This document shows positions 2,140 to 11,622 of a DNA stretch of 11,623 nucleotides, in pieces. The notes below the pieces were generated by a model. It searched no databases and was not told the DNA's origin. It saw only the letters and a list, made by a program, of their open reading frames with translations. The DNA is taken from the NCBI GenBank assembly GCA_038727095.1, contig JAVYWK010000045.1, positions 1-11,623 on the forward strand. Reading direction: 5' to 3'. The DNA comes from Thermofilaceae archaeon. Lineage in GTDB: Archaea > Thermoproteota > Thermoprotei > Thermofilales > Thermofilaceae. The position numbers and the translations under genes are program-made. Each line of letters begins with the position of its first letter. Within the stretch, counting starts at the first letter, position 1.

Positions 2140-3174
2140 TTACTCGAGGGATAGGTCGATGGTTGCCTCGAGGACATCCATCGAGTAGTCGCAGATTCTC
2201 CTCAAGCTGTCCGCGATCAGCCTGATGACCATGTGCCTCCTCGCATCGCAGGGCTCCTCGAGGATTCTCTCGATGAACCCCTGTTCGGCTGCCGCCAGTC
2301 GGGGTGGGTACTCGTCTAGCAAGCTTAGGGCCTTCTCCCTCTCCCTATTGAGGAAGCAACGTATCGAGTTTTGGAAGATTTCCTTCGCGAGCCTCGTCAT
2401 CGACTCGAGCTCCCTCTCTAAGCCGCTGATCGAAACGCCCGCTGTTACCAGCGACTTCGCGTTCCTAGCGATCTTCTCCGCGTGATCCGCGCAGCGCTCC
2501 ACGCTCTTCCCGACCACCGCGTACTCGATTATCTCCTCGAGACTCTTTAAGCCGATCTCCTCGATCCCCACGAAGCCTCTGACGCCCGCGTTCAACTGGC
2601 GGAGCAGGTAGAGGTACAGCTTATCGATGAAATCGTCCCTTGATATGACGTCCTCAAGGAGGGTTATGTTTCGAGCGAAGAGGCCCTCCATGGAATCGTC
2701 GATCATCCCGGCCCCCACCTGCCCCATCCTCTGGATGACGAGGTTGACGGGGAGCTCCTCAACGTTGACCAGCACTTGCAGTACGATGCTGTGCTCCCCA
2801 TCCTCCAGCAGCTCCACTCCGATCATCTTGTTTGAAATGACCCTCTTTATGACGTCCTTGAACCTCTTCCCATCGGGGGGGAGCTCGACTCTGATCACCT
2901 TGTAGCCGACCAGGTAGCGAGACATTATCTCGCGGATAATTGTCCCTTCGCTCTCCCCGTCTCGGATTATCATTTTGCACTCCGGCCTCTTTCCCTCCTG
3001 AAGGGGTGGCGGCACTAAGCGGAGCGAGCCGTCGGGCTCAAGAACGATGGTGACCGGCGACCCCCTACCTATGCCAACGCGTTTCGCCCAGTTCTTGGGG
3101 AGCGAAACGACGTACGTCGACCTGCCTATCAGCTGAACCCTCCTAGTTACCTCTCGCGTTTCCATACTAACCAC
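2140..3174 (-). CDS. phoU: Archaeal phosphate uptake regulator (N-terminal AbrB/SpoVT DNA-binding domain + two PhoU repeats)
   Basis: N-terminal RRVQLIGRSTYVVSLPKNWAKRVG...G (AbrB-like). PhoU motifs SRDDFIDKLY, KSVERCADHA and SLRRICDYSMDV. Alternative start ATG 3165. Confidence 0.9.
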   Translation of the reverse strand: MVSMETREVTRRVQLIGRSTYVVSLPKNWAKRVGIGRGSPVTIVLEPDGSLRLVPPPLQEGKRPECKMIIRDGESEGTIIREIMSRYLVGYKVIRVELPPDGKRFKDVIKRVISNKMIGVELLEDGEHSIVLQVLVNVEELPVNLVIQRMGQVGAGMIDDSMEGLFARNITLLEDVISRDDFIDKLYLYLLRQLNAGVRGFVGIEEIGLKSLEEIIEYAVVGKSVERCADHAEKIARNAKSLVTAGVSISGLERELESMTRLAKEIFQNSIRCFLNREREKALSLLDEYPPRLAAAEQGFIERILEEPCDARRHMVIRLIADSLRRICDYSMDVLEATIDLSLE

Positions 3175-3201: not shown

Positions 3202-3729
3202 TTAGACGCTTCTTTTAAAGCTTTTGGGCTCGCGATCCGCCCTCAGGGCGTCAAACCCGACGAGGAGGGTTCCGCAGCCCCCGCAGCTGGAGTTGAACAG
3301 CGAGAGCAGGAACGCGTGGGTCGGCGGCGAAGGCGAAGCTGCGACGCACGACTCTGCGATCTCGTCCAGCTCTGGTAGCTTGAGTGGTAGGAGAAGCACT
3401 GTGTGCTCCCCCCTAGCTTCCGCGATCGAGGTTCGGTCGATTAAAACCCCCCTTTCATCGATCACGCCGACTTTCCGCTCACCTACCTTGAGTACGGCGT
3501 AGGGGCCTGCAGGCCACTGGAAGTCGGGTCGCGTTAGAGCCGCAAAAACGTGCCTCTTGCCGAGGCACTCAAAGACGCCGACGTTGACCGGCCTACCCCA
3601 GTGCGACCTACTCGCGGAGTACTTCTGCTCAATCCTAGCTACCTCGTCGATCTCTTGCTGGCTGAGCTTCCGCACCCTAAGCACACCCCTTTTGACTAGA
3701 ACGGCCAGGACGACGTCCTCCAGCGTCAT
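3202..3729 (-). CDS. Uncharacterised protein (175 aa), translationally coupled to the Gfo/Idh/MocA gene
   Basis: ATGA start/stop overlap at 3726-3729 with the upstream oxidoreductase. Globular composition, with NVGVFECL, ASPSPPTH and CGGCG segments. Confidence 0.8.
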   Translation of the reverse strand: MTLEDVVLAVLVKRGVLRVRKLSQQEIDEVARIEQKYSASRSHWGRPVNVGVFECLGKRHVFAALTRPDFQWPAGPYAVLKVGERKVGVIDERGVLIDRTSIAEARGEHTVLLLPLKLPELDEIAESCVAASPSPPTHAFLLSLFNSSCGGCGTLLVGFDALRADREPKSFKRSV

Positions 3730-4730
3730 AGCCTTACGGGCTGCCCCCTCTTGCCTGACTCGATGATCGCCTCGAGTATCTTAACGTTATCCACGCCGTC
3801 CTCAACCGTGATGGCGGGCTCCGAGCGGCCGAGAACACAGGAGATGAAGTGGCGATCGGCCTCTACGAGGAAGCCGCTTGCAACGCCGTGAGACTTCCTC
3901 AGCTTGGCGAGGTGAGGGTACGTGTAGCTGGTGCTTGCCACGCTGATCGACTCCCTCTCAGTGTCAACGTGGACTGCCCCCCTCGTGCAGACGAGCTCCA
4001 GCTTGAAGTCGAAAATCGAGGGGGAGCTTTCGGGGAGCACCCAGCTGCTCTCAAGCACGGCGAAACCTTCGTCGAACTTCAGGATAGCAGCGAAGGCATC
4101 GGGTGTCCCCAGATCGCTGAGCAGCTTGGTCACCGACGTTGCGTACACTTCCCTCACGGGCTGGTTGAAGTACCAGCGCGCTAAATCGACTGTGTGGCTC
4201 ATGAGGAAGAAGGCGACGCTGGTCTTCGAAGCCCAGCTCAACATCCTCCTCGGCACGTACAGGGTGTCGCTCAGCCTGATGTACGCGTGAATTGGGGACC
4301 CGAGCTCGCCCCGTTGCAGCAGCTCCTTCACGTATACGAACGGGGGGTTGAACCGGTTCTCGAAGTTCACAAGCAGGAGTACACCCCTCCTTCTAGCTTC
4401 GTCAGCCATCGCTTGTGCCTCAGCGAGGCTCGTAGCCATCGGCTTCTCCACCAGCACGTGCTTACCTGCTCTCAGAGCCGCCATCACAGGATCAAAATGG
4501 AGGTGGTCAGGCGTTGCTACAACTACCGCATCCACCCCGGATCTTTCGCATAACTCCTCTGCACTGCCGTAGAACTCGGGCACGCCTTGCTCGGAGGCTA
4601 CAAGCTTGGCCTTCTGCCTATCAACGTCCGCCACTGCCACGATTTCCGCTTCTGGTACATGCCTTAACGCTTCGAGGTGCAGTAGCCCCTGGTTCCCCAA
4701 CCCTACAACGCCAACTCGAACCTTCCCCAT
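3726..4730 (-). CDS. Gfo/Idh/MocA family NAD(P)-dependent oxidoreductase
   Basis: VGVVGLGNQG Rossmann motif, VVATPDHLH, GKHVLVEKPMA, NFENRFNP, and catalytic-region FFLMSHTVD. ATG 4730 is preceded by GGAG. The alternative start is TTG 4739. Confidence 0.95.
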   Translation of the reverse strand: MGKVRVGVVGLGNQGLLHLEALRHVPEAEIVAVADVDRQKAKLVASEQGVPEFYGSAEELCERSGVDAVVVATPDHLHFDPVMAALRAGKHVLVEKPMATSLAEAQAMADEARRRGVLLLVNFENRFNPPFVYVKELLQRGELGSPIHAYIRLSDTLYVPRRMLSWASKTSVAFFLMSHTVDLARWYFNQPVREVYATSVTKLLSDLGTPDAFAAILKFDEGFAVLESSWVLPESSPSIFDFKLELVCTRGAVHVDTERESISVASTSYTYPHLAKLRKSHGVASGFLVEADRHFISCVLGRSEPAITVEDGVDNVKILEAIIESGKRGQPVRL

Positions 4731-4739
4731 GCGCTCCAA

Positions 4740-4833
4740 GGCCTCGATGCGGAGGTGCTTATCTAGCTTTGCTTTTCATTAGTGTTAGTCGCTATGTTTA
4801 ATAGTGCAAGGAAGAAATCTTCCAGAGGATGCA
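4740..4833. promoter_or_regulatory. Divergent promoter region with TATA-like TTTAATA (4797-4803) and palindrome GGAAGA-AA-TCTTCC (4810-4823)
   Basis: AT-rich spacer between divergent genes, with a perfect 6-bp inverted repeat just downstream of the + strand TATA-like box. Confidence 0.5.
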
Positions 4834-5187
4834 ATGGTTGAGCCGAGGCAATCAGCATTGGAGGAGGTTGAACGGAGAATCTCTATAGTCGTTGAGCAGT
4901 CCAAGGATCAATCGATCGCCGAGGGCCTGAAAGGCTTCAGCAAGTTAGTTGCTCTGGAGTTCCCGGATTTGGGTATCACTTACGCATTACGTTTTGAGGA
5001 TGGAGTAGTAAAGGAAGTTATAAAGGGGCATTCAGAGGCGGCGGAAATCAAAGTCGTGGTTCCCTCAACTACGTTCATAGGGATTATCGATAAAACCACA
5101 AGTCCTGTGAAGGAGTATCAGCTCGGCAGGCTCCGCGTGAAGGGTCCCATAAGCGACCTGCTGAAGTTGAGGAAGCTCCTCTTCTGA
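4834..5187 (+). CDS. SCP2 (sterol carrier protein 2)-like lipid-binding domain protein
   Basis: ~117 aa with the SCP2 pattern ...YALRFEDG...AEIKVVVPSTTFIGIIDKTTSPVKEYQLGRLRVKGPISDLLKLRKLL (G-x-L-x-V-x-G...L-x-KL). ATG 4834 is preferred over GTG 4804, which abuts the TATA-like box. Confidence 0.8.
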   Translation: MVEPRQSALEEVERRISIVVEQSKDQSIAEGLKGFSKLVALEFPDLGITYALRFEDGVVKEVIKGHSEAAEIKVVVPSTTFIGIIDKTTSPVKEYQLGRLRVKGPISDLLKLRKLLF

Positions 5188-5189
5188 TC

Positions 5190-6221
5190 ATGCACGCGCT
5201 TGTAACGGCCCGCTTCGATGAGAAGGCGATCGAGAAGCTAAGGGAGTACATCGATGTAACGTACCAAAGCTGGTGCAAAACTAAAAGGGTCATTAGTCAG
5301 GAGGAACTAATTGAGTTGGCGAACTCCCTGAAAGCTAACATTTTAATTGTAGAGTTGGAACATGTCGATCGCGAGGTCATCGAGCGCGTCGATGGGCTAA
5401 AGCTAGTAGGTGTTTGTCGGAATGACCCGGGCAGGAACGTCGATCTCGAGGCCGCGACTGAGAGAGGAGTACCAGTGATCTACACTCCAGGCAGGAACGC
5501 CAACGCGGTGGCCGAGCTCACAGTAGCAGTGATACTGATGCTCTTGAGGAAGCTCTCATCGATCTGCTTTAAGCTGAAAAGCGGCGCTGTGCGAATCGAC
5601 TCGTTTGAGGACTTCGCAAAGTACTACAGCGAATGGATGGGGAGCGAGTTGTACGGTAAGACCGTCGGCATCGTCGGGTTGGGGAGGATAGGGTACCGCG
5701 TCGCTGAAATACTGAGAGCCTTCGGAGCTCGCATTTTGGTCTACGATCCCTACGTTCACGACGAGAGAGTTAAGAGCGTGGGTGGTGAAAGGGTCGACCT
5801 GGAAACTCTGTTGCGCAGCTCCGACATTGTGACTCTCCACGTTCCACCCACCGAGGAGACTGTGAACATGATAGGGCGCAGGGAAATCGAGTTGATGAAA
5901 CCGACGGCAATACTCGTCAACTTGGCAAATCCCGTTGTAGTCGACGAGGACGCCCTCTACGATGCACTGAGGAGGAGAAGGATCGCGGGAGCAGCTCTAG
6001 ATGTTTTCTACGAAGAGCCTGTCGACTCCTCAAACAGATTCCTCCAGCTCGAGAACGTGGTTGTAACACCCCACATAGGAGGGAACACCGTTGAGACTAT
6101 AAGACGGCACTCGTGGATGATCGTCGAGGACGTTCTCAGGTATCTGAGGGGGGAACGCCCCTTGCACCTCGCGAATCCGAAGGTCTGGGATCGTGTCGCG
6201 GGAAGCTCTTATAGTCGTTGA
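5190..6221 (+). CDS. D-isomer-specific 2-hydroxyacid dehydrogenase family protein, YoaD-like
   Basis: VGVCR..P..NVDLEAATERGVPVIYTPGRNANAVAE, GKTVGIVGLGRIG, YDPY, LHVP, ALDVFYEEP, TPHIGG. The N-terminal LVTA...YQSW resembles Bacillus subtilis YoaD as I recall it. Confidence 0.92.
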   Translation: MHALVTARFDEKAIEKLREYIDVTYQSWCKTKRVISQEELIELANSLKANILIVELEHVDREVIERVDGLKLVGVCRNDPGRNVDLEAATERGVPVIYTPGRNANAVAELTVAVILMLLRKLSSICFKLKSGAVRIDSFEDFAKYYSEWMGSELYGKTVGIVGLGRIGYRVAEILRAFGARILVYDPYVHDERVKSVGGERVDLETLLRSSDIVTLHVPPTEETVNMIGRREIELMKPTAILVNLANPVVVDEDALYDALRRRRIAGAALDVFYEEPVDSSNRFLQLENVVVTPHIGGNTVETIRRHSWMIVEDVLRYLRGERPLHLANPKVWDRVAGSSYSR

Positions 6222-7677
6222 TTTCGGTAGCAGCGCGCTTAAGGTGCAAGCCTTCACTACCAGTGGCGAGTTCATCGTAGAGAGGCGCGCACCCCTTAGG
6301 CTGTACGCGGATGAAGCAACGCTAGCCGTTGAGTACAATCCAACGGAGGTTGAAAGCTCGCTTTTCACCTGCCTGCGCTCAGTAGGCGAGGGTCTCCAGC
6401 GGCTGCAGTACGAAGTGAAGGGCATCGGGTGTACCTCTCAGCGCTACAACATGGTTCTCCTCGATATTAACGGGAGGGAGCTCTGCATGAGCCCCAACGT
6501 TGATCCGCGCGGCTTCCTTGCTAGCCTTAGCCTCAGCGACGATGAGTGTGCTGAACTCTACAGAGTCACGGGCCTTTACCCGCCGCACCTCTTTACAGCT
6601 GCTCGATTAATCTGGTTCAAGGAGTTCAAGCCAGAATCTTTTTCAAAAATTTCAAAGATTTTAACCATATGCGATTGGCTGCTGTACAAGCTCTGCGGTG
6701 CTTACACTACGTGCCCGTCCTTAGCGGCCAGCACCATGTTGTTCGACGTGGTTAGCATGAGGTGGAGTAGGAAGGCGATGGAGATGTTCGGAGTCGTCGA
6801 GGATATGCTTCCGGAAATCGTGAGAGAGGGGGATTTCGCAGGCTACCTCTCACGGGAGGCGGCGAAGAAGACTAGCCTACCTGAGGGGCTACCCGTCGTC
6901 GTTTGTGGTGGCGACACGCAAACAGCCGCTTTAGCGGCCGGCGTTTTCGGCGAGGGTGAGGTGGGGGTGATCGCAGGTCGTACGGTACCCGTTGTCGCTT
7001 GGACCGGGAATCCAGCGATTGACGCGGGGATGCGCACCTGGCTGGTCCCCCATGTGGGAGGTGGTTGGCTTGTAGAAAGCAACGGAGGGCCTCTCGGAGA
7101 ATTTGTTGAGTGGTTCCTCAGAGATATCATAGTCACAGAGGATTACGGGGCGCTCGATCGGCTGTTCGAGCTCTCCGAGCCAGGTGCGAAGGGAGTCATG
7201 ATGAAACTCTACCCATCGATCATGGATGCAAAATCGCTAGGCCGGCAGAGCTTTAGGAGCTTCATCTCCACGCCACTCCTCGCATCGCCTTTTACCCAGC
7301 CCGTTAAAGTCTGCGACATGGTGAGGGCGCTCCTCGAATATGTCGCGTACAGCATTAAAGCGAACGTTCTGCAGGCGGTCAGTGTAGCATCGAAGAGATT
7401 AACGAGCGTGAGAGCGACGGGCGGCTTAACGCGGATTAGGTCGCTAAGGAAGCTTCTGCCATCTGTGCTCGGCAGAACGGTGTTCCTCACGAACGTTCCG
7501 CACGGCAGCGGGGCTGGGAGCGCAGCTCTAACAGCCCTCTCTCTCGGATGCTACAGCAGCCTGAGAGAGGCCGCTAGGGCGTTCGTGCTGCTTGAGGGGT
7601 GCGAACCTGACCCCGATCTCGTCGAGCACTACGAAGCCGCTTACGTGAGCTGGCTTGACTTTTATACCGGCGTTTAA
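6193..7677 (+). CDS. FGGY family carbohydrate kinase, YoaC/AI-2-kinase-like
   Basis: IVVDFGSSALK phosphate-1 motif, CTSQR...LLD..G.....PNVDPRG, DWLLYKLCG, GGDTQ, ESNGG, RALLEYVAY, ATGG. TSQR/PNxDxRG is typical of the YoaC/LsrK-like branch. GTG start overlaps the dehydrogenase end by 29 nt. Confidence 0.9.
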   Translation: MSREALIVVDFGSSALKVQAFTTSGEFIVERRAPLRLYADEATLAVEYNPTEVESSLFTCLRSVGEGLQRLQYEVKGIGCTSQRYNMVLLDINGRELCMSPNVDPRGFLASLSLSDDECAELYRVTGLYPPHLFTAARLIWFKEFKPESFSKISKILTICDWLLYKLCGAYTTCPSLAASTMLFDVVSMRWSRKAMEMFGVVEDMLPEIVREGDFAGYLSREAAKKTSLPEGLPVVVCGGDTQTAALAAGVFGEGEVGVIAGRTVPVVAWTGNPAIDAGMRTWLVPHVGGGWLVESNGGPLGEFVEWFLRDIIVTEDYGALDRLFELSEPGAKGVMMKLYPSIMDAKSLGRQSFRSFISTPLLASPFTQPVKVCDMVRALLEYVAYSIKANVLQAVSVASKRLTSVRATGGLTRIRSLRKLLPSVLGRTVFLTNVPHGSGAGSAALTALSLGCYSSLREAARAFVLLEGCEPDPDLVEHYEAAYVSWLDFYTGV

Positions 7678-7687
7678 CGGCTGGCTC

Positions 7688-8332
7688 GTGAAGTATCGGG
7701 AGCTTAGGGAAAAGGTGATTGATGCCTTCAGGTTCATGGAAAGTGCGGGGTTGAACTGGGGCTATAGCGGCAACATCAGCGTTCGCTTGCCCGAAGAAGG
7801 GCTCTACTTAATGACTCCAAGCGGCCTGAGGAAAGCCCAGATGAGGCCGGAGGACCTGGTCGTAGTTGACGAGCAGGGAAACTTGGTTGAAGGAGGGCGC
7901 GCTCCAACGAGCGAGTATCTGATGCACTTGGCTGTGTACAGGGCTAGGAGCGACGTCAAAGCTGTAGTGCACGCGCACCCGGTATACGCATCGGTTCTAG
8001 CAGCGCTCCGGCGGAGACTGGAGCCCGTGCTGGACGAAATCACAGTCTACCTGGGTGGTGCGGTCGAGGTAGCCGACTACGGGCCGCCCGGCAGCGAGGA
8101 GCTGGCGAGGAACGTCGTACGAGCGTTGGGTGACCGGTGCGCTGTGATCCTGGCTAACCACGGGGTTTTAACCTGCGGGAAAGATTTGGACGAGGCTCTC
8201 GACGCGCTCGTCTACCTTGAGAGAGCAGCGAAAGTCTACGTGCTAACGCTGCTATTGGGCACCCCGCACCCGCTTCCGGCGGAAGTGCTGGAGTTCGAGA
8301 AACAGCTATACCTGCTGAGGCGCGGTCAGTAG
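7688..8332 (+). CDS. Class II aldolase/adducin family protein (L-fuculose-phosphate aldolase-like)
   Basis: GNISVR, TPSG, PTSEYLMHLAVY (catalytic Glu), VVHAHP and LANHGVL (three Zn-ligand His). GTG 7688 is preferred over TTG 7655, which lies inside the kinase. Confidence 0.93.
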   Translation: MKYRELREKVIDAFRFMESAGLNWGYSGNISVRLPEEGLYLMTPSGLRKAQMRPEDLVVVDEQGNLVEGGRAPTSEYLMHLAVYRARSDVKAVVHAHPVYASVLAALRRRLEPVLDEITVYLGGAVEVADYGPPGSEELARNVVRALGDRCAVILANHGVLTCGKDLDEALDALVYLERAAKVYVLTLLLGTPHPLPAEVLEFEKQLYLLRRGQ

Positions 8333-9042
8333 AGCGGGGGTAGGTGGGGTCCGAATACCCTCAGCAACGATACGTAGCCTGGAACGTACACCTTGCTCTT
8401 CCCCTTTCTCACGGCCTTTAGGATTTCCTTGCTAACCTCCTCCGCTGTAACAGTGCCCCACTTCGGGGCAGCTCCTCCAGCTCGCGCGTGGAACTCGGTG
8501 AGCACTGAGCCAGGGTAAACGGTCACTACCCTGATGCCTTTCAGCTTCAGCTCCCTCTCAATCGCTTTAGAGGCGTAGTGGAACGCTATCTTCGTTGCAC
8601 CGTAGATCGGTAGCCGCGTCATCAGGACGTGGATACCGGCAGTAATGACGTTTACGACGGTGGAGCCCTCGTGCATCAGCGGGAGCAGCTTCCTGGTGAG
8701 CACTATCGGGGAGACGAAGTTCACGAGCGTCATCGAGAGGAGCTCGTCTTCACTGTGCTCGAGCACACCTTTGTATAAGCCGAACCCGGCGTTGTTCACG
8801 AGGACATCGACCCTCCCCAGAAACGCGCGAGCCCCCTCAACAACTCGATCTAGCTCCTCAAGCTTGGAAAGATCGGCTCTCACGTAATCGAAGCGATCTC
8901 CCAGCTGCCGCTTCAGCTCCAGTAGCGCTCCCTCGCTTCTAGCGACGCCGAGCACTCTACCACCTGCGCGACAGATTTCAAGTGTGAGAGCCCTACCGAT
9001 CCCGGAGGACGCGCCCGTGACTACAGCCCTCAGGTCGGCCAT
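8326..9042 (-). CDS. Short-chain dehydrogenase/reductase (DltE-like, probably NADP-dependent)
   Basis: TGASSGIG, VARS (basic residue favouring NADP), NNAGFG, YGATK catalytic motif, YPGSVLTEF. Confidence 0.93.
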   Translation of the reverse strand: MADLRAVVTGASSGIGRALTLEICRAGGRVLGVARSEGALLELKRQLGDRFDYVRADLSKLEELDRVVEGARAFLGRVDVLVNNAGFGLYKGVLEHSEDELLSMTLVNFVSPIVLTRKLLPLMHEGSTVVNVITAGIHVLMTRLPIYGATKIAFHYASKAIERELKLKGIRVVTVYPGSVLTEFHARAGGAAPKWGTVTAEEVSKEILKAVRKGKSKVYVPGYVSLLRVFGPHLPPLY

Positions 9043-9191: not shown

Positions 9192-9214
9192 ATGCGCCTA
9201 CCTCCGTGGCTACC

Positions 9215-10111
9215 GTGCGGTTGAAAGGTAAGGTTGTGATAGTAACGGGGGGAGCACGCGGGATTGGAGCCGCCATCTCCCACAGGCTGGGGAGGGAGGG
9301 CGCCAAGGTCGTCGTCTTCGACATCGATGGTAAGGCTGGAGAGTACAGGCTGAAAGCGCTGATGTCCGAGGGTGTTGATGCGATCTTCGTTGCGGGCGAC
9401 GTTGCAAGGGAGGAGGACGTCTCCCGCTGCGTGGGGGAGGCAGTTGATGCCTTCGGCAGAATTGATGTACTCGTGAACAACGCGGGTATCGGCTTCTCGG
9501 GCAAGCCGCTTTTCGAGCAAACGCTCGAGGAGTGGTGGAGAGTGCTCTCCGTCAACCTGACGGGCCCCTACCTATTCTCGAAGCACGCTGCCCGAATCAT
9601 GGCGGAGAGGGGAGGGGGAGTCATCATCAATATTGCGAGCACAAGGGCCCTCCAGTCGGAACCCAACACGGAGCCCTACTCTGCGTCGAAGGGAGGGCTT
9701 TTGGCACTAACTCACGCGCTAGCCGTCAGCCTGGCACCCTACCGCATCAGGGTGGTAGCGGTATCGCCTGGGTGGATCGATACGAGCGAGTGGCAGATCC
9801 CTCCAAGAGAGCCTCAGCTAACCAGGCTGGATCACGAGCAGCACCCGGCTGGCAGGGTTGGCAGGCCGGAGGATGTTGCAGCACTAGTGGCGTTCCTGGC
9901 TTCAGACGAGGCGGGCTTCATCACGGGTGTCAACTTCGTGATCGACGGGGGCATGACGGTGAGGATGATCTACTTAGATGACGCCGTAGTCGAGGACGCC
10001 TTGTTCAGGCTCACCGGAGACCGCGAGTTTGCCGCGCTCGTCAGGCGAGTAGCCCTTTCGGGACTAGCGGGGAGAGCGAAGGAGGCTCTCAAACCAGTCC
10101 TTGTGGATTGA
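9215..10111 (+). CDS. Classical SDR (glucose 1-dehydrogenase-like) with a 45-aa C-terminal extension
   Basis: TGGARGIG, VFDID (acidic residue favouring NAD), NNAG, IASTRALQSEPNTEPYSASKGG, SPGWID, QHPAGRVGRPED, DGGMTVRMIY. Alternative start GTG 9206. Confidence 0.93.
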   Translation: MRLKGKVVIVTGGARGIGAAISHRLGREGAKVVVFDIDGKAGEYRLKALMSEGVDAIFVAGDVAREEDVSRCVGEAVDAFGRIDVLVNNAGIGFSGKPLFEQTLEEWWRVLSVNLTGPYLFSKHAARIMAERGGGVIINIASTRALQSEPNTEPYSASKGGLLALTHALAVSLAPYRIRVVAVSPGWIDTSEWQIPPREPQLTRLDHEQHPAGRVGRPEDVAALVAFLASDEAGFITGVNFVIDGGMTVRMIYLDDAVVEDALFRLTGDREFAALVRRVALSGLAGRAKEALKPVLVD

Positions 10112-10212: not shown

Positions 10213-11622
10213 CTACCTCTTCATCAGCGCTGCGGCTAGGGCCCTGAAGAATTCGATCATCTTCGCCGCCGCATCGTAGGGCTTCTCCGCCCTGTACAGG
10301 CTTAGAGCTTCATCGAGTATGCTCTTGAGCTCGTCGGCTTTGGCACGAGCCAACTTCCCCTCCCTCACATAGTCCTCCAGCAGCGAGACGGCCAGCCGGT
10401 GCCCGTACTCGACATTCACCAGAGCCACTAGCTCGTGGAAGTTGATGGGGATGATCTGAGGGCGCTCCTGGAGGATCCTCCTGAGGCCTTCGAACTCCTC
10501 GATGTCCCACGGCTGGGAGATGACAAGGATGATGGGGAGGTTCCGCGCAGCTGGCTGAATGCCTGTGAGCTCCACCGCTCCCGCGTAGAGGTCCACACCG
10601 CTGCCGGGGTCGTACCAGACCCTGAACTCTATGTTGCCAGTGGCTTTAGCGAGTGTGAAGTTGATCTCAAACCACTGGTAGCTGCCGACCCTCACGAACT
10701 CTGAGCCGGAGATCTCCCTTTGGGCTATGATCGTCCTCCCGATGTCCGTGCACACGTCTATGGTCGCTACACGAGCCTCCGTGCGAGCGGAGATCTTAAG
10801 GGCGAACCGCACGGTGTAGCTCCCAGCTGGCAGCTCCGTGTAGGGTCCGTAAACCAGAGCTCCTGCTAGGCTCGCCCCCGCTCCCGCAAGCCTAGCTCTC
10901 TTCGTGGGGGAATCGGGGTCGTCGACTTGCGCCCCAAAACCGGGCAGTTCGTCAGCCGGGTTAAAGCGCAGTGCAGTAGGCGGCTGAGCGTACATCCTAA
11001 TCGCTTCGTCGAGGTCGGAGGCGAACTTTCCCAGCTCAGTGCTCCTGAAGTGAAGCGCACCGAAGACTACGGGGATCGTTAAGTTGCCCTTTCTTACGTA
11101 GTAGACGGAGCTTCCGTGAGCCTTGAAGAGGCCGGGCAACTCGTTGTAATCCCTCTTCACCGCTAGAAGCCAGGGGGAGAGTTGAACAGCGTAAGCCGCC
11201 GCGACGTCATCGTCGTATCCCAGCACCTCAACGACCCGCAGACCGCTCTTTTCCAAGTGGTAGCTCGTGTGTGGGAGGTACTGGCCCAGGTAAGGCTTGT
11301 TAGAGGTGGGGTAGATGTAGCCTGCACCGGAAGGGCCGCAGACGAACGTATCGTGCTCGCTCATGGTTCTGGCGTAGTAGTACACCATGAAGGGTGCCAC
11401 GTCGAGGAGGAAGGGGCTAACCGTCCAGGCAATCGGAACGCCAAGCCTCCTCTGCCACAGGTTTACCATGTTGTAATCCCACTGAAGGTTGTCCCCGTCA
11501 GTCACGTAGAAAGTTACGTAAACCCCATCTCTCCCCAGCACTTCAGGTCTAACGGGAGGCAGGGGGAACTTCGGGTCCTCGGGCGGCTTCAGGTGCATCC
11601 AAACCGTCGGATTCGCAAAGTC
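10213..11622 (-). CDS. GxGYxYP-domain putative glycoside hydrolase with inserted CBM-like domain, partial (5' end lies beyond the right edge)
   Basis: VTFYVTDGDNLQW, PIAWTVSPFLLDVAP and DTFVCGPSGAGYIYP are the GxGYxYP C-terminal domain signature. The frame stays open to the window edge (DFANPTVWMHLKPP...), so ATG 11598 is internal. Confidence 0.88.
   Translation of the reverse strand, partial: DFANPTVWMHLKPPEDPKFPLPPVRPEVLGRDGVYVTFYVTDGDNLQWDYNMVNLWQRRLGVPIAWTVSPFLLDVAPFMVYYYARTMSEHDTFVCGPSGAGYIYPTSNKPYLGQYLPHTSYHLEKSGLRVVEVLGYDDDVAAAYAVQLSPWLLAVKRDYNELPGLFKAHGSSVYYVRKGNLTIPVVFGALHFRSTELGKFASDLDEAIRMYAQPPTALRFNPADELPGFGAQVDDPDSPTKRARLAGAGASLAGALVYGPYTELPAGSYTVRFALKISARTEARVATIDVCTDIGRTIIAQREISGSEFVRVGSYQWFEINFTLAKATGNIEFRVWYDPGSGVDLYAGAVELTGIQPAARNLPIILVISQPWDIEEFEGLRRILQERPQIIPINFHELVALVNVEYGHRLAVSLLEDYVREGKLARAKADELKSILDEALSLYRAEKPYDAAAKMIEFFRALAAALMKR

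Follow-up and report, generated by a model that had tools for sequence, protein, structure and literature searches.

Described pathways can combine a sugar-type kinase with an aldolase-fold enzyme. In fuculose-, rhamnulose- and ribulose-type deoxy-sugar or pentulose pathways, the kinase acts on the free ketose and the aldolase splits the ketose-1-phosphate. In the Otn-type acid-sugar route, an aldonic or tetronic acid is oxidised and phosphorylated and an aldolase-fold beta-keto-acid decarboxylase yields dihydroxyacetone phosphate (DHAP) and CO2; the known Otn kinases belong to the DUF1537 family. We analyzed a window of 11,623 nucleotides from a Thermofilaceae archaeon, in which an FGGY-family kinase and a class II aldolase stand together with a dehydrogenase and an SCP2-family protein. 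The four genes form one conserved catabolic-type module, of which our literature searches found no description.

Gene layout of the locus

An earlier, sequence-only reading had named five genes and their families; all five are present, Pfam agrees with the assignments and the spacings given there match the sequence. The features are as follows.

3726–4739, minus strand: Gfo/Idh/MocA oxidoreductase (Pfam, 114.5 bits)
4797–4803, plus strand: TTTAATA, a TATA-box-like element read from the sequence
4834–5187 (alternative start 4804), plus strand: SCP2-family protein, 117 aa (PF02036, 21.6 bits)
5190–6221, plus strand: PGDH-like 2-hydroxyacid dehydrogenase (2HADH), 343 aa (Pfam 2-Hacid_dh_C, 189.5 bits)
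6193–7677, plus strand: FGGY-family kinase, 494 aa (Pfam FGGY_N, 136.8 bits; FGGY_C, 27.3 bits)
7688–8332 (alternative start 7655), plus strand: FucA-type class II (zinc) aldolase, about 214 aa (Pfam Aldolase_II, 196.1 bits)
8326–9042, minus strand: classical SDR, 238 aa, convergent with the aldolase (Pfam adh_short, 132.6 bits)

The SCP2 stop codon ends at 5187, 2 nt before the 2HADH ATG at 5190; the 2HADH gene ends at 6221 and overlaps the kinase, which starts with GTG at 6193, by 29 nt; and 10 nt separate the kinase TAA (7675–7677) from the aldolase GTG at 7688. The TTTAATA element lies about 31 nt 5' of the SCP2 ATG at 4834, and archaeal promoters follow a 26–27 nt spacing rule. It is likely the promoter of a near-leaderless SCP2-2HADH-FGGY-aldolase transcript. 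The true SCP2 start is most likely this ATG and not the GTG at 4804, since homologues begin at 4834, the element occupies 4797–4803, and a DNA sequencing run from a close strain contains 1-base insertions at 4807 and 4813 (n = 2) that coding DNA would not tolerate. Contigs of one metatranscriptome bridged all three gene junctions, which is weak evidence of expression; contigs from the RNA library covered 29 of 30 window bins, divergent genes included, and neither establish a single transcript nor rule out carry-over of DNA.

Linkage across archaea and fusion in bacteria

The order SCP2-2HADH-FGGY-aldolase was identical in all three related Thermofilaceae loci fetched from other genomes. A profile built from four SCP2 sequences gave 10 matches at E <= 1.5e-20 among 401 genomes of the phylum. 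All seven matches outside Thermofilaceae adjoin an aldolase, and six have the FGGY kinase adjacent, the remaining one lying on a 2.5-kb contig. In seven genomes from two further Thermoproteota families (f20 and f27), the module genes are clustered but rearranged and are joined by an aldehyde dehydrogenase (ALDH) gene; the six larger regions all read FGGY-aldolase-SCP2-ALDH-2HADH, with the SCP2 gene on the opposite strand. The cassette of SCP2, PGDH-like 2HADH and FGGY kinase is thus conserved and always found alongside a FucA-type class II aldolase. Of 41 related genomes, the source genome (G000) itself counted, just four have a full-length orthologue of the kinase (38–98% identity).

Anaerolineae-type bacteria carry the module as one protein of 1300–1480 aa with the architecture FGGY-2HADH-SCP2(x1–2)-aldolase. 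The SCP2 profile also retrieved a protein of 987 aa with the order 2HADH-SCP2-SCP2-aldolase, and a search with this protein gave 620 matches. Among the best 120 of the 620, every one contained SCP2, Aldolase_II and 2-Hacid_dh_C and 108 contained FGGY_N; the full domain order was the same in all six fused proteins scanned. In metagenomes, 64 of 80 loci consisted of a single fused ORF, and BLAST detected all three enzyme domains in 57 of these 64. The sequence-only reading had placed SCP2 in an uncharacterised catabolic-type unit and named absence of synteny elsewhere as grounds for dropping the idea; SCP2 was clearly found to be syntenic in relatives, linked despite rearrangement in other families and fused in bacteria.

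The genes flanking the module are less constant. The Gfo/Idh/MocA gene (165.1 bits against the IolG model, cut-off 355) had been counted with the module: it does face the cluster, but the pairing recurs only within the genus, in G002 and G003 and not in G018, and in G014 and G009 the first gene of a Gfo-aldolase-SDR operon is a different Gfo paralogue (29–31% identity). We regard the gene as a genus-level local neighbour outside the conserved unit, and its link to the module is uncertain. Homologues of the SDR (59–73% identity) adjoin the aldolase orthologue in G003, G004, G014 and G009, and the SDR is probably an accessory enzyme, for example for an aldehyde or alcohol product.

In three lineages, the module repeatedly has an aldehyde:ferredoxin oxidoreductase (AOR) or ALDH as a neighbour, which argues for an aldehyde product. 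In G018, the 3' end of the aldolase gene and an AOR gene share 4 nt; all five f20/f27 loci scanned have an ALDH within the cluster; and 11 of 48 bacterial groups encode one or the other at most 8 kb away from the fused gene, many of the groups being on short contigs. No sugar isomerase was found in any module locus scanned. MFS transporters adjoin the module in G018, in four of six f20/f27 regions and in three bacterial groups, and glycoside hydrolases (GH4, GH10 and GxGYxYP) occur nearby, so that an ordinary soluble sugar fits these neighbours better than a lipid.

Protein families and catalytic residues

In trees built without bacterial outgroups, the 25 module kinases (window, f20/f27 and fused) separated from 21 paralogues with an SH-aLRT support of 96, and the 25 module 2HADHs separated from five paralogues with moderate support (89/90). 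The module 2HADHs all share a 10-residue insertion as well as C-R and P-G-R-N motifs, none of which occurs in the five paralogues. The kinases and dehydrogenases of the module therefore share ancestry across archaea and bacteria, and the catalytic sites of the module are intact apart from one Arg.

That residue is the carboxylate-binding catalytic Arg of the 2HADH, whose best solved relative is the P. horikoshii PGDH (1wwk, 219.6 bits). It is Asn in the window enzyme and Asn or Ser in all nine archaeal module 2HADHs, with the catalytic His and Glu kept, while two further Arg are invariant in all 25. The best reading is that the 2HADH works upstream of the aldolase and on a non-acid substrate, because it belongs to the core while the aldehyde oxidiser varies, because the module loci scanned have no isomerase, and because the archaeal enzymes lack the carboxylate-binding Arg. 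The absent Arg could instead reflect an impaired or non-canonical dehydrogenase.

The aldolase is encoded by a single-copy gene in this genome. Its alignment to E. coli FucA shows that all three His, the counterpart of Glu73 and the residues of the phosphate site are retained, with Asp or Glu at the position of FucA Tyr113. Given the kept metal and phosphate ligands, it is predicted to be a competent aldolase. Its sequence falls within a broad archaeal clade: it is 45–69% identical to the lone aldolases of 22 other loci, in which the other three module genes are missing, and only 36–40% identical to the f20/f27 and 28–38% to the fused aldolases. This aldolase type therefore also exists independently of the module and is not specific to it.

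The SCP2 gene is also single-copy, and it was linked to the module enzymes in all lineages examined. The window protein scores marginally against PF02036 (21.6 bits, cut-off 21.3), its orthologues reach 34.8–43.4 bits, and a family profile of 43 relatives matched solved SCP2 proteins at E = 1.5e-12. In the fused bacterial proteins, SCP2 sits between 2HADH and aldolase, with linkers of at least 77 residues before it and about 46–61 Pro/Ala-rich residues after it. It may serve the module as a tethered carrier or adaptor, most likely a mobile carrier and less likely a purely structural adaptor, and the substrate is therefore possibly amphiphilic. The amphipathic substrate or product suggested earlier gained some support in bacteria, from the tethered SCP2 and from lipid-related neighbours (HpnA-type SDR, P450, MMPL and thiolase) in some loci, but archaeal loci have no such neighbours.

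The proposed route and its alternatives

We infer a polyol substrate and the following order of steps. The substrate would carry a terminal chain of hydroxylated carbons, R-CHOH-CHOH-CHOH-CH2OH, and the FGGY kinase would phosphorylate the primary hydroxyl at this terminus. The 2HADH would then convert the adjoining CHOH, a secondary alcohol, into a ketone and so create a ketose-1-phosphate-like end with no need for an isomerase. Cleavage by the zinc aldolase is proposed to release DHAP, which would pass to glycolysis, and an aldehyde R-CHO. The latter would be oxidised by the AOR or ALDH where one is encoded alongside, and at the window locus the adjacent SDR may handle it instead. SCP2 would be the integral fourth component, most likely one that holds a hydrophobic moiety of substrate or aldehyde for presentation to the enzymes. 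We give this overall reading, with a polyol kinase and dehydrogenase, an aldolase giving DHAP and an aldehyde, and an SCP2 carrier or adaptor, roughly an even chance.

The foremost alternative, an ordinary deoxy-sugar or pentulose pathway, appears unlikely. The AOR or ALDH would then oxidise lactaldehyde, glycolaldehyde or glyceraldehyde, the 2HADH would act on the resulting D-2-hydroxy acid, and SCP2 would be a structural adaptor only. The best aldolase matches are indeed L-fuculose-phosphate aldolases (family PRK06833, 160 bits; structure 4c24, 135.7 bits), FGGY kinases are numerous in the genome (eight matches), ALDH adjoins 2HADH in the f20/f27 loci, and the transporters and glycoside hydrolases suit such a pathway. 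However, an aldose-ketose isomerase is absent from every module locus scanned, the 2HADH is fused to kinase and aldolase while the aldehyde oxidiser varies or is missing, the Arg that would bind the acid carboxylate is missing from the archaeal enzymes, and the universal SCP2 is left without explanation. The window kinase missed the models of its nearest named families, LsrK (160.4 bits, cut-off 528) and XylB (157.5 bits, cut-off 380), and kinase and aldolase missed by wide margins every equivalog cut-off for fuculose, xylulose, AI-2, ribulose and MTRu enzymes.

An Otn-type route is improbable. The usual substrates of the 2HADH family are 2-hydroxy acids, the aldehyde-handling Tyr of FucA is not conserved, and the model of 3-oxo-tetronate 4-phosphate decarboxylase gave the aldolase 122.2 bits; yet the cut-off of that model is 250 and FucA models scored higher, the repeated presence of an AOR or ALDH indicates an aldehyde product, the archaeal 2HADHs lack the carboxylate-binding Arg, and the module kinase is not of the DUF1537 family. 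We consider the biosynthetic direction similarly doubtful: an AOR would reduce an acid to an aldehyde, the aldolase would join this aldehyde to DHAP, and the final steps to a polyol or amino-polyol lipid head group on SCP2 would fall to the dehydrogenase, an aminotransferase or both. Aldolases and AORs are reversible, and some bacterial loci contain an HpnA-family SDR (412 bits, cut-off 367.65), a class III aminotransferase, a polyprenyl synthetase, or DXS with LytB. This scheme, though, would call for a phosphatase and offers no obvious role for the kinase; MFS transporters and regulators of the GntR/UTRA and SorC/DeoR types typify catabolic operons; and the occurrence is patchy and accessory, with a strong SCP2 match in 5 of 17 genomes of one genus.

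The disposal of SAM by-products (5-deoxyribose or methylthioribose), put forward by analogy to yoaDC and DrdA/Ald2, is very improbable. The third solved aldolase relative listed is 6btd (123.7 bits), which we take to be the B. thuringiensis 5-deoxyribose-pathway aldolase, and the MtnB model gave a partial match (83.3 bits); this falls below the cut-off of 137, however, the window contains no riboswitch, MtnA/MtnK/DrdI-type genes are absent from all module loci scanned, the conserved set has no DrdK kinase or MTA phosphorylase, and the dehydrogenase and SCP2 would go unexplained. That SCP2 is a chance neighbour, a view its marginal Pfam score might invite, is scarcely credible and is contradicted by the archaeal linkage and bacterial fusion: SCP2 accompanies the enzymes in both archaea and bacteria, in three gene orders, and is built into the enzyme polypeptide in every one of the best 120 of 620 matches.

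The sequence of oxidation, phosphorylation and aldol cleavage that had been suggested for these genes fits a module with no conserved isomerase, a core dehydrogenase and a recurrent aldehyde oxidiser. The conservation of the module and its fusion in bacteria point to an undescribed breakdown route for a sugar-alcohol-like compound, possibly one with a greasy part.

Gene organization and linkage across Thermoproteota

The window is the entire 11.6-kb contig C45 of a 1.86-Mb archaeal genome bin that is 92% complete; database relatives of its proteins that carry a name are Thermofilaceae, and near-identical DNA was found in 17 runs that bear the label hot-springs metagenome and come from seven coded studies. 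An ORF listing combined with Pfam searches recovered all five genes named in the sequence-only reading:

3726-4739, minus strand, Gfo/Idh/MocA oxidoreductase (Gfo; Pfam, 114.5 bits)
4834-5187, plus strand, SCP2 protein
5190-6221, plus strand, D-2-hydroxyacid-dehydrogenase family protein (2HADH)
6193-7677, plus strand, FGGY kinase
7688-8332, plus strand, class II aldolase

The tight packing of the four plus-strand genes was likewise confirmed, with spacings of +2, -29, and +10 nt. ATG 4834 is the most likely start of the SCP2 gene, since its homologues begin at the same position, a TTTAATA box lies at 4797-4803, and a DNA run from a close strain carries single-base insertions at 4807 and 4813. 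In one metatranscriptome run, contigs of a 95-99% relative spanned all three cluster junctions. The same run covered 29 of the 30 bins of the window, divergent genes among them, and because nearly the whole window is covered in this way, the contigs are weak evidence of expression and demonstrate neither a single operon transcript nor a DNA-free library; the uncovered stretch at 4446-4872 carries no weight. Contig breaks with unlike continuations, seen in a DNA run and the RNA-library run, lie within the Gfo gene at 4416 and 4448 and suggest that strains vary or are rearranged immediately ahead of the cluster.

Full-length orthologues of the kinase were present in 4 of 41 related genomes, the window's own included, at identities of 98% (G002), 51% (G003), and 38% (G018); the remaining genomes held only kinase paralogues of at most 32% identity. 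The order SCP2-2HADH-FGGY-aldolase was identical in all three loci fetched from these relatives. Using a profile of the four SCP2 orthologues against 401 genomes of the phylum, we obtained 32 matches, 10 of them strong (E <= 1.5e-20). Seven strong matches lay outside the family, in two other families of Thermoproteota (f20 and f27); an aldolase gene adjoined SCP2 in all seven and an FGGY gene in six, the seventh being on a 2.5-kb contig. The six larger f20/f27 regions all had a rearranged order, FGGY-aldolase-(SCP2, on the opposite strand and in its own 0.4-kb gap)-aldehyde dehydrogenase-2HADH. SCP2 synteny, by which the sequence-only reading had proposed to be judged, therefore held in all three same-order relatives and in the rearranged clusters. 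The module takes the form of an operon in three or more families of Thermoproteota, with hot-spring samples among its sources. At the 20 loci examined among those with weak SCP2 matches (L037-L056; E = 1e-7 to 6.5e-4), none of the enzymes was encoded within 1.5 kb, and we set these aside as other SCP2 proteins. A pattern scan of genome contigs with the SCP2 alignment reached two close relatives only, and the profile and representative searches reached wider. The simple ORF caller was crude: it overlooked the SCP2 ORF at two loci (L057 and L061), both found by tblastn, and mis-stranded the aldolase at another (L146).

The sequence-only reading had listed the Gfo gene with the module, as a divergent oxidoreductase, and nothing in the comparisons supports this link. 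It adjoins the cluster in the window, but it is a neighbor at the genus level only and is absent beside the G018 cluster, where a divergent MFS transporter lies upstream and the aldolase stop falls in a 4-nt overlap with an aldehyde:ferredoxin oxidoreductase (AOR) gene. The Gfo protein passes the Pfam cut-off and misses that of IolG (165.1 against 355), and we therefore treat it as a family member without assigned specificity. On the minus strand it is followed by a 175-aa protein without family match (3202-3729; 50% identical in G003) and an AbrB/MazE-PhoU fusion (2140-3174; 78% identical in G003), which may form an oxidoreductase-led unit with it. Downstream of the cluster lie a short-chain dehydrogenase (SDR; 9206-10111, plus strand) that is kept in G002 and G003 and, with 263.8, exceeds the cut-off of 215 set for a 'glucose 1-dehydrogenase' subfamily model, and a GxGYxYP_C-family putative glycoside hydrolase (10213-11598, minus strand) kept in G002; this hydrolase and SDR, the second in the window, are a sugar-related context of the cluster.

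Fused forms in Anaerolineae-type bacteria

An exhaustive SCP2 profile search returned, among its matches, a 987-aa fusion protein (E = 1.6e-7) with domains in the order 2HADH-SCP2-SCP2-aldolase, an NCBI record from an Anaerolineaceae genome bin (131-kb contig). Used as a query against proteins 542-1728 residues long, it yielded 620 matches. The best 120 of these, mostly 1300-1480 aa long, all contained SCP2, Aldolase_II, and 2-Hacid_dh_C, and 108 contained FGGY_N. The domain order was FGGY-2HADH-SCP2 (one or two)-aldolase in all six proteins scanned, and the seven organism-named rows among the fusion matches were without exception Anaerolineae or Chloroflexi. The fused gene was one uninterrupted ORF at 64 of 80 metagenome loci, 57 of the 64 encoding all three enzyme domains; at the other 16 it ran off the contig end in the simple ORF caller. 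At one locus (L131:3404-7349) the gene appeared in two pieces, FGGY+2HADH in one ORF (3404-6358) and SCP2+aldolase in another that overlaps it (6147-7349); the cause may be a frameshift, or the two-part form may be natural.

The SCP2 domain of the fused proteins is flanked by long low-complexity linkers, so that it resembles a mobile domain on a tether; the preceding linker has at least 77 residues, and the following one, rich in Pro/Ala, has about 46-61. The linker between 2HADH and SCP2 carries a short conserved motif of the type G-G-L-L-x-G-L-K-K-L in about 9 of the 16 fusions aligned; it resembles an amphipathic helix and might touch membranes.

Enzyme families and the SCP2 protein

None of the window's kinase, dehydrogenase, and aldolase reached an NCBIfam equivalog cut-off. 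The kinase belongs to the FGGY family (FGGY_N 136.8; FGGY_C 27.3 against a cut-off of 27) and contains a G-G-D-T-Q stretch, which we take to be the FGGY catalytic motif. It scored below every named FGGY cut-off (LsrK 160.4 against 528, XylB 157.5 against 380.25, GntK 107.6 against 648.55, GlpK 101.7 against 590.35, FucK 77.4 against 470.9), reaching neither these equivalogs nor ribulokinase or rhamnulokinase, and its best solved relative was LsrK 5ya0 (115.2 bits). In a tree of 46 rows, inferred without bacterial outgroups, the module kinases (3 from the window clade, 6 from f20/f27, and 16 fused) were separated from 21 archaeal paralogues by a branch with an SH-aLRT support of 96, and we class the window kinase on this topology as an orthologue of the fused FGGY domain.

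The dehydrogenase is a member of the 2HADH family (2-Hacid_dh_C 189.5, 2-Hacid_dh 69.5) with the NAD-binding GLGRIG motif and a YDP motif, and falls below the equivalog cut-offs of PGDH (TIGR01327, 256.9 against 454) and glyoxylate reductase (NF009714, 244 against 455). Its tree, again without bacterial outgroups, separated 25 module rows from 5 same-genome paralogues with moderate support (ultrafast bootstrap 89, SH-aLRT 90). A 10-residue insertion before GxGxxG and the motifs C-R and P-G-R-N were found in all 25 module enzymes, and in none of the five paralogues or the two aligned solved relatives. The window enzyme is likely an orthologue of the fused 2HADH domain.

Within the active site, the catalytic His295 and Glu276 are invariant in the 25 module rows and the NAD site is intact. 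The Arg-Glu-His triad is incomplete in the window: aligned to 1wwk and 5aov, the arginine of N-T-x-R-G is replaced by asparagine (N-L-A-N-P). This position holds Asn in all three members of the window clade and Ser in all six f20/f27 enzymes, leaving the nine archaeal module enzymes without the arginine, which is kept in 16 of 16 fused proteins and 5 of 5 paralogues. The catalytic arginine of the family holds the substrate carboxylate, and its loss speaks against the archaeal enzymes acting on a 2-hydroxy acid; it would be compatible with a polyol phosphate bound by the two invariant arginines. The insertion and arginine motifs and, in archaea, the loss of the catalytic arginine are sequence features of the module's own.

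The window's genome contains a second 2HADH-then-FGGY pair (contig C16, 24929-27447, minus strand), with a 4-nt overlap between the two genes. Over 265 aa, the 2HADH of this pair shares 44% identity with that of the window, and it retains the catalytic arginine; its FGGY protein is 23% identical, and BLAST around the pair found no aldolase or SCP2 gene beside it. The pair may be a closer analogue of the plain yoaD-yoaC pair of Bacillus subtilis than is the module.

The aldolase is a PF00596 protein (Aldolase_II 196.1) with the zinc histidines, catalytic Glu, and phosphate-site residues present. Aligned to E. coli FucA (1dzw), it matched at G-N-I-S, T-P-S-G, T-S-E, H-A-H, and N-H-G, positions for which we assume the E. 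coli residue numbers (e.g., Glu73). The FucA-type site residues were kept in 47 aligned relatives, save one His in a single row. FucA Tyr113 was not conserved: it aligns with Asp127/Glu128, and an acidic residue occupies the position in all 47 relatives, comprising all module rows and the wider stand-alone clade. The FucA equivalog cut-offs were missed (PRK06833, 160 against 264; TIGR01086, 118.2 against 400.25), as were those of other activities on the fold: the OtnC decarboxylase (122.2 against 250), the MtnB dehydratase (83.3 against 137.05), and the AraD epimerase (65.7 against 389.1).

Class II aldolases 45-69% identical to the window's occur in many genomes of the phylum, and 22 such stand-alone loci examined had no SCP2, 2HADH, or FGGY gene nearby. 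In the aldolase tree, inferred without bacterial outgroups, the window clade nests among the stand-alone enzymes, with the f20/f27 and fused aldolases as successive outgroups; the window and fused aldolases fall in the same larger group, the window enzyme in a clade with stand-alone ones. The contexts of the latter vary and include a Gfo-aldolase-SDR operon in two genomes of one genus. An SDR homologous to that at 8326-9042 of the window accompanies the aldolase in four genomes (G003, G004, G014, and G009), and in the genus mate G004 the two occur without the cassette of SCP2, 2HADH, and FGGY, on a 5-kb contig. The inclusion of the aldolase in the unit thus stands in part: it is always with the cassette at module loci, but it is shared with a wider, independent stand-alone clade. 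Our reading of the window, from these comparisons, is a resident aldolase and SDR with a Gfo neighbor, in front of which the SCP2-2HADH-FGGY cassette sits.

The window's SCP2 protein exceeds the PF02036 cut-off marginally (21.6 against 21.3), its orthologues scoring 34.8, 40.2, and 43.4. A profile of the 43-sequence family matched the PDB structures 2c0l, 1qnd, and 1c44 at E = 1.5e-12 to 4e-12, as well as domains of peroxisomal multifunctional enzyme 2 (MFE-2; 1ikt, 6z1w) and alkyl sulfatases (4nur, 2cfu), and the protein's feature score to the SCP2 clusters of a protein atlas was 0.96. Other multidomain proteins reuse the same SCP2 subfamily, as shown by a 1104-aa protein with three SCP2-like repeats (P0048) and a peptidase-U32 + SCP2 fusion (P0125). 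Three further profile matches (P0051, P0053, and P0060), about 260-370 aa long and encoded in Lokiarchaeia/Promethearchaeota genome bins, combine an N-terminal part without Pfam match with a C-terminal SCP2 domain. The N-terminal part of P0051, the sole one inspected, is hydrophobic-looking and resembles a membrane anchor, and proteins of this type could serve Asgard archaea as lipid carriers anchored in the membrane.

Substrate and comparison with known systems

An aldehyde dehydrogenase (ALDH) gene was present in all five f20/f27 clusters scanned and an AOR gene in G018. Around the fused gene, an AOR or ALDH gene lay within 8 kb in at least 10-11 of 48 bacterial groups (dereplicated at 85% identity), neighbor counts in these groups being lower bounds since many contigs are short. 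The recurrence of an aldehyde oxidizer fits an aldolase releasing an aldehyde. An aldose-ketose isomerase was absent from every module locus scanned, and the dehydrogenase is present in every module, even fused between kinase and aldolase, which makes it the candidate for supplying the keto group required by a class II aldolase. In our best explanation, the kinase, the dehydrogenase, and the aldolase would act in this order on a terminal polyol, creating a ketose-1-phosphate-like end and yielding DHAP and an aldehyde; the order is proposed on the aldehyde oxidizer, the lack of an isomerase, the lost arginine, and the largely intact aldolase site taken together.

Within this explanation, we consider the odds roughly even that the substrate is amphiphilic. 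To our knowledge, nearly all known fusions of the SCP2 fold serve hydrophobic substrates. MFS transporters adjoin the module in G018, in four of the six f20/f27 regions, and in three bacterial groups, there accompanied by a SorC/DeoR-type regulator, and glycoside hydrolases lie near several archaeal loci; such neighbors suit a soluble substrate, hence the roughly even odds for the amphiphilic reading.

A more specific form, which we consider improbable, is that the module clips the tails of amphiphilic polyol lipids, including hopanoid and archaeal applications. SCP2 would lift the lipid out of the membrane or micelle, the kinase and PGDH-like dehydrogenase would turn a terminal tetrol into a ketose-1-phosphate end, and the aldolase would remove three carbons as DHAP, leaving a lipid aldehyde for oxidation to the acid by AOR or ALDH. 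In the hopanoid case bacteriohopanetetrol would become C32 hopanoic acid, and in bacterial operons the class III aminotransferase and HpnA-family SDR encoded directly upstream would beforehand turn lipids of the aminotriol type into the tetrol; in the window, the substrate would be another polyol lipid of the hot-spring habitat. Sedimentary C32 hopanoic acid derives from bacteriohopanetetrol. One study states that it dominates among sedimentary hopanoic acids (PMC11884234).

The tethered SCP2 domain and the recurring aldehyde oxidizers agree with such clipping, as does the SDR encoded immediately ahead of the fused gene at one bacterial locus (L112), which passes the curated cut-off of the hopanoid-associated HpnA model (412 against 367.65) and has a sterol demethylase component as its second match. 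Single bacterial loci also have neighbors encoding P450s, an acyl-CoA synthetase, a thiolase, and an MMPL transporter, which point the same way, and DXS with LytB. However, BLAST homologues of the L112 SDR (62-78% identity) occur in the neighborhood of the fused gene in only 5 of the 48 groups and at none of the archaeal loci, beside which the MFS transporters and glycosidases stand. The HpnA-type gene is often accompanied by a GntR/UTRA regulator, AOR, class III aminotransferase, and M28 peptidase. One review states that hpnA, like the enzyme making bacteriohopanetetrol from ribosylhopane, is without known function (PMC12583986). Ether-lipid cleavage (alkyl-DHAP) was dropped, as nothing but SCP2 calls for it. 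The links to SAM by-products and to YoaC/YoaD drawn in the sequence-only reading found nothing in their favor. An Rfam scan of the whole window gave no family at gathering score and hence no SAM riboswitch.

The broader claim of that reading, an uncharacterized catabolic unit to which SCP2 belongs, has strong support from conserved linkage, fusion, and the accompanying aldehyde oxidizers. The module is conserved across two domains of life, with hundreds of fused proteins from Anaerolineae-type bacteria in many metagenomes. Its enzymes come from familiar families, yet all fall below curated specificity cut-offs, and for a lipid-carrier domain within a sugar-type enzyme set we found no described counterpart. 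Because the fusion ties the four genes into one function, one recombinant protein could be enough to identify the substrate; G018 is a complete single-contig genome with proteins recorded under a named strain, and physiology may be possible there. An amphiphilic substrate would provide a first enzymatic handle on anaerobes stripping polar polyol ends off membrane lipids, bearing on sediment carbon turnover and lipid biomarker alteration. A plain polyol would mean a new isomerase-free entry into DHAP, with the role of the SCP2 fold there a further question.

Our literature search found no description of the gene combination or of its fusion, and in literature on Infirmifilum the module genes appeared in no title among the matches listed. 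Among known systems, the B. subtilis yoaD-yoaC-yoaB operon, an S-box operon of 2HADH, FGGY kinase, and MFS transporter, shares the enzyme-family pair with the module, and an MFS gene adjoins the module in G018, f20/f27, and some bacterial loci. The operon is not known to contain an aldolase or SCP2, and, unlike it, the window has no riboswitch in the Rfam scan. No YoaC-like or YoaD-like subfamily model was among the NCBIfam matches of the window proteins. For yoaD/yoaC, the one paper found to mention both genes only guesses at a role in cysteine and sulfur metabolism (PMC2885750). In the Lsr system, LsrK is the best-scoring named family of the window kinase (160.4 bits), and a regulator of the SorC/LsrR type is encoded ahead of the fused gene in 5 of the 48 bacterial groups; the module differs in missing the LsrK cut-off (528), in having no LsrG/LsrF homologues, and in its cleavage enzyme, a class II aldolase.

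The joining of an SCP2 domain to the catalytic domains of one pathway is also seen in MFE-2, SCPx, and alkyl sulfatases. There the partners serve lipid beta-oxidation or are sulfatases, whereas those of the module are a sugar-type kinase, a PGDH-like dehydrogenase, and an aldolase; and MFE-2 and SCPx carry the domain C-terminally, whereas in the fused proteins it sits between two enzymes on long linkers.

The haloarchaeal ribulose-1-phosphate aldolase and bacterial 5-deoxyribose (DrdK/I/A) routes use a FucA-like aldolase that cleaves a ketose-1-phosphate, giving DHAP together with a small aldehyde. Unlike the module, their core has no dehydrogenase or SCP2, and their kinase families and isomerase step are without counterpart in it; the RU1PAldHalo model scored 138.4 against a cut-off of 300. 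Phosphorylative L-fucose and L-rhamnose catabolism of E. coli (FucK-FucA, RhaB-RhaD) similarly employs an FGGY kinase and then a zinc class II aldolase, giving DHAP and an aldehyde that is subsequently oxidized, there by lactaldehyde dehydrogenase; the corresponding steps of the module are proposed. The module aldolase keeps the metal, phosphate, and Glu73-type residues of FucA. In contrast to the fucose/rhamnose route, the module has no isomerase and has the PGDH-like dehydrogenase and SCP2 as obligatory partners, and relative to the fucose enzymes it misses the FucA (160 against 264) and FucK (77 against 471) cut-offs and replaces FucA Tyr113 with Asp/Glu. We thus see the module as a variant of the kinase-plus-class-II-aldolase theme, possibly one acting on an amphiphilic polyol.
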